NCBI RefSeq assembly: GCF_003334255.1
Contig: NZ_QOWU01000278.1
Strand: one strand, 5' to 3'
Length of the DNA stretch: 231 nt
Source: Escherichia coli
Lineage (GTDB): Bacteria; Pseudomonadota; Gammaproteobacteria; Enterobacterales; Enterobacteriaceae
Part shown: piece after piece, positions 1 to 231 of the stretch
How the letters are laid out: each line of letters begins with the position of its first letter
How positions within the stretch are numbered: the stretch's first letter is position 1
Notes under the pieces: model-generated
Seen by the model: the letters and a program-made list of their open reading frames with translations, nothing else
What the model was told of the DNA's origin: nothing
Databases searched by the model: none
Translations under genes and position numbers: made by a program

Positions 1-231
1 TTTCCTCTTCTTATTTTGCAGTCGTCTTCATTCATTACCACGTCCAGACGCCAGTGCAGCTTATTCTCCACGTGCCAGTGATTTCGGATCGCTGTGGCGA
101 ATTTCTCAGCGGTTAAATCAGCAGAACTGATATAATATCTGACCGTCATTTCTGGCTCTTTCTTTTGTTCTGCTATTATGGACCGAAAGGAGACTGCCAC
201 GCATAATTTCTTCAGCCCTTTCCATTCAAAC
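1..231 (-). CDS. ISAs1-family (H-repeat-associated) DDE transposase, internal fragment; partial at both ends, with start and stop codons outside the window
   Basis: Seen in sequence: the reverse-complement frame with codons at plus-strand 230..3 is open for all 76 codons and translates to [76 protein letters not shown]. The other two minus frames have stops at plus 226-228 (TGA) and 212-214 (TGA). The plus frames have stops at 79-81 (tga), 128-130 (tga) and 114-116 (taa). Established knowledge: the HW-x-EN-x-LHW-x-LD-x(3)-EDD block is the hallmark C-terminal motif of ISAs1-family transposases, and the peptide matches from memory the E. coli H-rpt proteins (YhhI/YdcC/YbfD-like paralogs). No gene symbol is given because the paralogs are near-identical and 231 bp cannot tell them apart. 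Confidence 0.93.
1..231 (-). mobile_element. Interior of an ISAs1-family insertion sequence (H-repeat / ISEc1-like); terminal inverted repeats and boundaries are not in the window
   Basis: Inferred from the transposase CDS call. ISAs1-family elements are single-ORF insertion sequences, so a transposase-internal window lies inside the element. No inverted repeats or target-site duplications are visible, so the element boundaries and whether the copy is complete are unknown. Confidence 0.8.

Follow-up and report, generated by a model that had tools for sequence, protein, structure and literature searches.

The window, that is, the whole 231-nt stretch of Escherichia coli DNA that was analysed (44% G+C), is almost certainly (probability approximately 0.97) derived from the interior of the transposase gene of ISEc1, which is the E. 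coli H-repeat (H-rpt) and belongs to the ISAs1 family; features of the whole element were read from database copies. An ISEc1/H-rpt fragment of this kind is already known, and nothing in the window is unusual. The features to which we refer are given here in window coordinates, A1 being the protein alignment described below.

1..231, minus strand: interior part of the ISAs1-family transposase gene of ISEc1 (H-rpt) (translation, NF033564, 100% identity to K-12 yhhI)
24..86, minus strand: R300–D320 block, the most conserved of the family, within the DDE_Tnp_1 match (alignment A1)
66..68, minus strand: GAG codon of E306, the probable third DDE residue (conservation in A1)
123..140, minus strand: R282–S287 (RYYISS), a family-typical motif in which S287 is invariant (alignment A1)
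179..207, plus strand (antisense to the transposase): weak sigma-70-like hexamer pair, TGGACC-17-CATAAT, 9 of 12 (scan)

Coding content of the window

Six-frame translation showed that frame 2 of the minus strand is the only open frame of the window, with 76 codons throughout, and the other five frames contain 2, 2, 2, 5 and 8 stops, in agreement with a sequence-only reading made earlier, which had described an uninterrupted 76-codon minus-strand frame with the other frames closed. As 2264 of 20000 mononucleotide shuffles of the window (11%) also contain at least one fully open frame, the open frame by itself is weak evidence, within chance, and it is homology that settles the coding identity. 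In a profile search, the 76-amino-acid translation matched the NCBIfam equivalog NF033564 (transpos_ISAs1) with E=1e-25 and 90.6 bits, the curated whole-protein cut-off being 70 bits, and this match covers positions 227–296 of the 314 in the profile. The same fragment matched the Pfam domain DDE_Tnp_1 (PF01609) with E=8.6e-6. Both matches confirm the ISAs1 transposase signature recognized in the earlier reading, and the HMM search of the minus-strand translation that it had proposed thus returned the ISAs1 family.

The window is 100% identical over 231 nt to yhhI (b3484) of E. coli K-12 MG1655 (positions 8001–8231 of the yhhI region, L001). The yhhI CDS (L001 7249–8385, 378 codons) is annotated as 'ISAs1-like element ISEc1 family transposase', and its length of 378 amino acids in this identical database copy falls within the 370–380 predicted for the extended frame. 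Codons 252–327 of the yhhI-type ORF occupy window positions 3–230 on the minus strand, with base 231 closing codon 251 and bases 2–1 opening codon 328, and the window as a whole corresponds to nucleotides 897–1127 of the 1291-bp element.

The window was also searched for other features. Rfam, applied to both of its strands with permissive settings, gave no match up to E=1, and a promoter/terminator scan revealed no terminator-like site in the window. The same scan yielded one promoter-like site, against 0.3±0.7 expected in shuffles; this antisense 9-of-12 hexamer pair is within the shuffle expectation and was taken as chance. Internal inverted-repeat pairs of the element, among them I4, one arm of which falls in the window, are imperfect as well as short and were likewise regarded as chance. 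With Rfam blank, no terminator and a single promoter-like site at chance level, the statement that the window holds the transposase only stands.

Conserved residues of the YhhI transposase

In the full YhhI protein (378 amino acids, K-12 copy), the DDE_Tnp_1-associated domain PF13808 covers residues 8–94 (E=1.9e-33) and DDE_Tnp_1 (PF01609) covers residues 102–343 (E=1.7e-29), and the part encoded by the window, residues 252–327, is the C-terminal portion of this catalytic domain. A tblastn search against plasmids gave matches to relatives from many genera in 868 records. Alignment A1 comprises 12 proteins with 25–98% identity, namely YhhI, YdcC and ten annotated ISAs1-family transposases (25–51% identity) from Salinivibrio, Aeromonas, Klebsiella, Nostoc, Fukatsuia, Sinorhizobium, Azospirillum and Streptomyces. 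It covers Gamma- and Alphaproteobacteria as well as Nostoc and Streptomyces and has 25 invariant columns, eight of which lie within the window (S287, R300, H302, W303, E306, H310, D314 and D320), and the R300–D320 block has the pattern R300-x-HW-x-x-E306...H310...D314...D320.

The invariant acidic residues in A1 include D109 (in AIDGK), D172 (in DAMG) and E306 (in W-x-[IV]-E-N), which together are the probable DDE catalytic triad, as judged from their conservation, their position in the domain and what is known of IS4/IS5-type DDE transposases, in which the glutamate of the triad lies within a conserved basic/aromatic motif. As a PDB sequence search with the full 378-amino-acid protein gave no match up to E=1, it is conservation, and not a solved structure, on which this catalytic assignment rests. 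The window holds E306 alone of the predicted triad, and D109 and D172 lie outside it, as do the start and stop codons of the ORF and the ends of the element.

Limits of the element and traces of transposition

BLAST comparison of the K-12 yhhI region with the RhsE and RhsC regions of the same genome, in which homology stops sharply, placed the limits of ISEc1 at L001 7105–8395, giving an element of 1291 bp, and the same limits were found again in four further copies. The terminal inverted repeat is imperfect, with 14 of 19 positions matching between CAGGGAAAGATCATCAAAAG and the reverse complement CAGGGCAAGATTACGAAAG. Its exact runs of 5+5 nt are below the seed of the repeat finder, and the ends were compared directly after delimitation by BLAST. 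The terminal inverted repeats to be sought by extending the sequence were therefore present, as an imperfect pair bounding the 1291-bp element in identical database copies. Just past the right end of the element, between yhhI and yhhJ, we also noted REP-like palindromes (GCCTTATCCGGCCTA...) at L001 8466–8550, including a 21-nt inverted repeat (8496–8516 and 8530–8550).

The yafV-side copy of the element in E2865 has GCGTTAAACA, a perfect 10-bp target duplication, on both sides (L014 6096–6105 and 7396–7405), and this duplication records a real transposition event. Flank comparison detected no target duplication at K-12 yhhI, ydcC or ybfL or at the copy in the O15 cluster of M160133, which is consistent with later rearrangement at these sites. 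K-12 ydcC has the left flank of the E2865 copy, GCGTTAAACA included (L002 7663–7672), but an unrelated right flank, an arrangement that points to a deletion or rearrangement in the K-12 lineage that began at the element's right end.

By analogy with other DDE transposases, the imperfect terminal inverted repeats (CAGGGAAAGAT...) would be where a YhhI-type transposase binds, DNA cleavage and joining would use two metal ions held by the triad, and insertion would yield a 10-bp target duplication. The description of this DNA as 'mobile' in the sequence-only reading is to be taken in a historical sense, since according to the E. coli W genome paper H-rpt transposition has not been observed (PMC3032704). 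In a study of the K-12 mobilome, elevated circular-DNA coverage was described for five other IS groups, and ISAs1 circles, if any, were suggested to be rarer (bioRxiv 10.1101/2024.07.17.603846).

Genomic surroundings of H-rpt copies

Of the six regions with ISEc1 that were inspected, five were linked to Rhs, the flanks of the window itself being outside this comparison. H-rpt lies at the distal end of the Rhs element, past the rhs core gene and small ORFs. In K-12 the order is rhsB-yhhH-(truncated HEAT-repeat pseudogene)-yhhI, followed by yhhJ, at RhsB, rhsE-ydcD-yncI-ydcC at RhsE and rhsC...ybfQ-ybfL-ybfD at RhsC, and a distal Rhs position is also found at the RHS remnant of E2865 and at the RHS genes of NZ_AP023206.1. 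The exception is the O15-cluster copy of E. coli M160133, a full-length ISEc1 (L017 2830–4120) whose transposase gene is annotated as intact and which is flanked by galF and wzx in the head part of the O15 O-antigen cluster. In the literature, H-rpt figures as a component that accompanies Rhs C-terminal tips (PMC3032704), and for Salmonella an H-repeat remnant, compared with K-12 yhhI, has been reported at the recombination junction in the group D2 O-antigen cluster (PMC3715488). The earlier remark that places H-repeats in or next to Rhs elements and O-antigen clusters is thus in line with K-12, E2865, NZ_AP023206.1, the galF–wzx copy and published work alike.

At the left boundary of ISEc1 in K-12 (L001 7105), the HEAT-repeat ('lyase') pseudogene (6758–7108) comes to an end, and sequence homologous to yibA, which encodes a HEAT-repeat protein, in other genomes matches up to the left junction only. 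As the yibA homology stops at this junction, insertion of ISEc1 seems to have cut short a yibA-like gene located downstream of rhsB-yhhH.

Copies of the window in E. coli genomes

By megablast, which also detects related copies, the window was matched in 5234 of 5426 complete E. coli genomes (96%), at a median of three and a maximum of nine places per genome. Nearly all of the 17107 window matches are chromosomal, and as only 13 of them are on plasmids, the occurrence of Rhs and H-rpt on a plasmid-annotated replicon is unusual. NZ_AP023206.1 (L016), a plasmid-labelled record of 404 kb, carries RHS core genes together with four H-rpt transposase matches.

The window most probably derives from the rhsB-linked yhhI copy on an E. 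coli chromosome, although its source may also be a different copy carrying these 231 bases. In 1853 records the best match reaches at least 99% identity, a number close to the counts of genomes with the junctions of the rhsB-linked insertion (right, 1841; left, 1808; both of 5426, i.e. approximately a third and not universal). Among the 30 matches of 100% identity that were listed, 25 are the yhhI copy, annotated as intact. Both of these observations argue against the alternative that the window comes from a decayed ISEc1 pseudogene copy with its disabling mutation outside the 231 bases, which we consider unlikely, while giving it some weight. The same 231 bases are present with 100% identity in the yafV-side copy of E2865 (L014 7001–7231, in the ORF at 6249–7385), which adjoins a T6SS/RHS remnant and has a stop at codon 18, and the remaining five of the 30 listed matches are annotated only as 'ISAs1 family transposase' and have an E2865-like position. 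The rhsB-linked copy of E2865 (L015 5017–5247), which is 97.8% identical in the window with five mismatches, also carries an internal stop, and ybfL of K-12, which encodes the same residues as the window, is a pseudogene as well. As a pseudogene copy in E2865 is identical to the window, the 231 bases do not decide which copy was the source or whether its ORF was intact, and we dropped the assignment of the window to one chromosomal locus, the 100% variant of E2865 being in its yafV-side copy and not in its rhsB-linked copy.

Relationships between copies and a possible role in the host

The window differs from ydcC and from ybfL by seven nucleotides each (97.0% identity), and one codon in it is amino-acid-changing, P277L in ydcC, all other differences from ydcC and ybfL being synonymous. 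Over the whole ORF, yhhI and ydcC differ by 12 synonymous and 9 non-synonymous changes, giving a dN/dS of 0.19. As regards exchange between copies, the exact 231-nt variant of K-12 yhhI occurs in E2865 in the yafV-side copy and not in the orthologous rhsB-linked one, a mosaic pattern that suggests gene conversion or sequence exchange between H-rpt copies.

Several regions contain more than one ISAs1-family sequence. The RhsC region of K-12 has a run of H-rpt pieces (L003 9303–11926; ybfQ, ybfL and ybfD) in the order element nucleotides 1–381, the full 1291-bp ybfL copy, with its stop at codon 18, nucleotides 25–913 and the last 67 nt. A similar run is seen in NZ_AP023206.1 (L016 2656–4147), where a 201-nt left-end fragment is followed directly by a full copy. 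In addition, both K-12 (yncI, L002 6594–7218) and E2865 (L014 5027–5651) have, directly upstream of an ISEc1 copy, a second and divergent ISAs1-family pseudogene that is approximately 67% identical to ISEc1 at the nucleotide level.

A very different explanation of these data would be that the H-rpt transposase has been domesticated, the host retaining it as a recombinase that shuffles Rhs toxin/immunity 'tips' and O-antigen clusters, for instance through rearrangement of the C-terminal tips. If true, this would account for the near-universal presence of the element (96% of complete genomes), the purifying selection between its copies (dN/dS 0.19) and the fact that classical transposition has not been observed (PMC3032704), and the Rhs linkage of five of the six regions would also be in keeping with it. 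However, the perfect 10-bp duplication, the nested copies and the copy inserted into an O-antigen cluster are what characterizes an ordinary IS that transposes, the many pseudogenes among the copies argue against selection at the level of the host, and the rhsB-linked insertion is found in only approximately a third of genomes. Purifying selection, moreover, is equally expected for any IS that is still spreading. We therefore regard both a domesticated transposase kept for an Rhs toxin/immunity function and a retained recombinase acting on tips and O-antigen clusters as highly improbable, and retain the reading of the window as part of an ordinary IS transposase gene.

In itself, an H-rpt fragment matters little, as this is a textbook repeat of E. 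coli, annotated in thousands of genomes. A copy is useful mainly as a flag, as it usually marks the vicinity of an Rhs toxin/immunity locus and in some cases that of a surface-polysaccharide cluster, and H-rpt copies are repeats that are able to recombine with one another and to confuse read mapping.

Comparison with known systems

The system with which the window is identical, at 231 of 231 positions and in the same frame (residues 252–327), is ISEc1/H-rpt B (yhhI, b3484) of the RhsB element of K-12. The RhsE-linked ydcC and the RhsC-linked ybfL of K-12 are the same 1291-bp element, 96–98% identical overall; across the window, the ybfL protein is identical and that of ydcC is one residue off (P277L). 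In contrast with these full-length copies, ybfD is truncated (element nucleotides 25–913, then 1225–1291) and overlaps the first 17 bases of the window only.

The ISAs1 family is named for an element of Aeromonas salmonicida, and its members are elements of approximately 1.2–1.5 kb with short terminal inverted repeats (ISfinder family description). In the case of ISEc1 we found the family profile match, PF13808 and PF01609 in a single ORF of 378 amino acids (approximately 350–400 in the family), an element size and terminal repeats in keeping with this description, a conserved acidic triad (predicted) and, at the E2865 copy, a 10-bp duplication within the range of approximately 8–10 bp. The ISAs1 members ISAeme1, ISKpn31, ISPa60 and ISRm21 match the same profile, NF033564, with proteins of 348–396 amino acids, and members of the family have D109, D172, E306 and R300/H302/W303/H310/D314/D320 in common with YhhI. 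These relatives differ from it in having only 25–51% amino acid identity, and most are carried by plasmids in other genera, with no linkage to Rhs. Transposases of the IS4/IS5 type with a DDE_Tnp_1 domain, such as the Tn5 transposase, have the same Pfam domain, PF01609, but belong to different IS families, from which the ISAs1 family is distinguished by an N-terminal domain of its own, PF13808.
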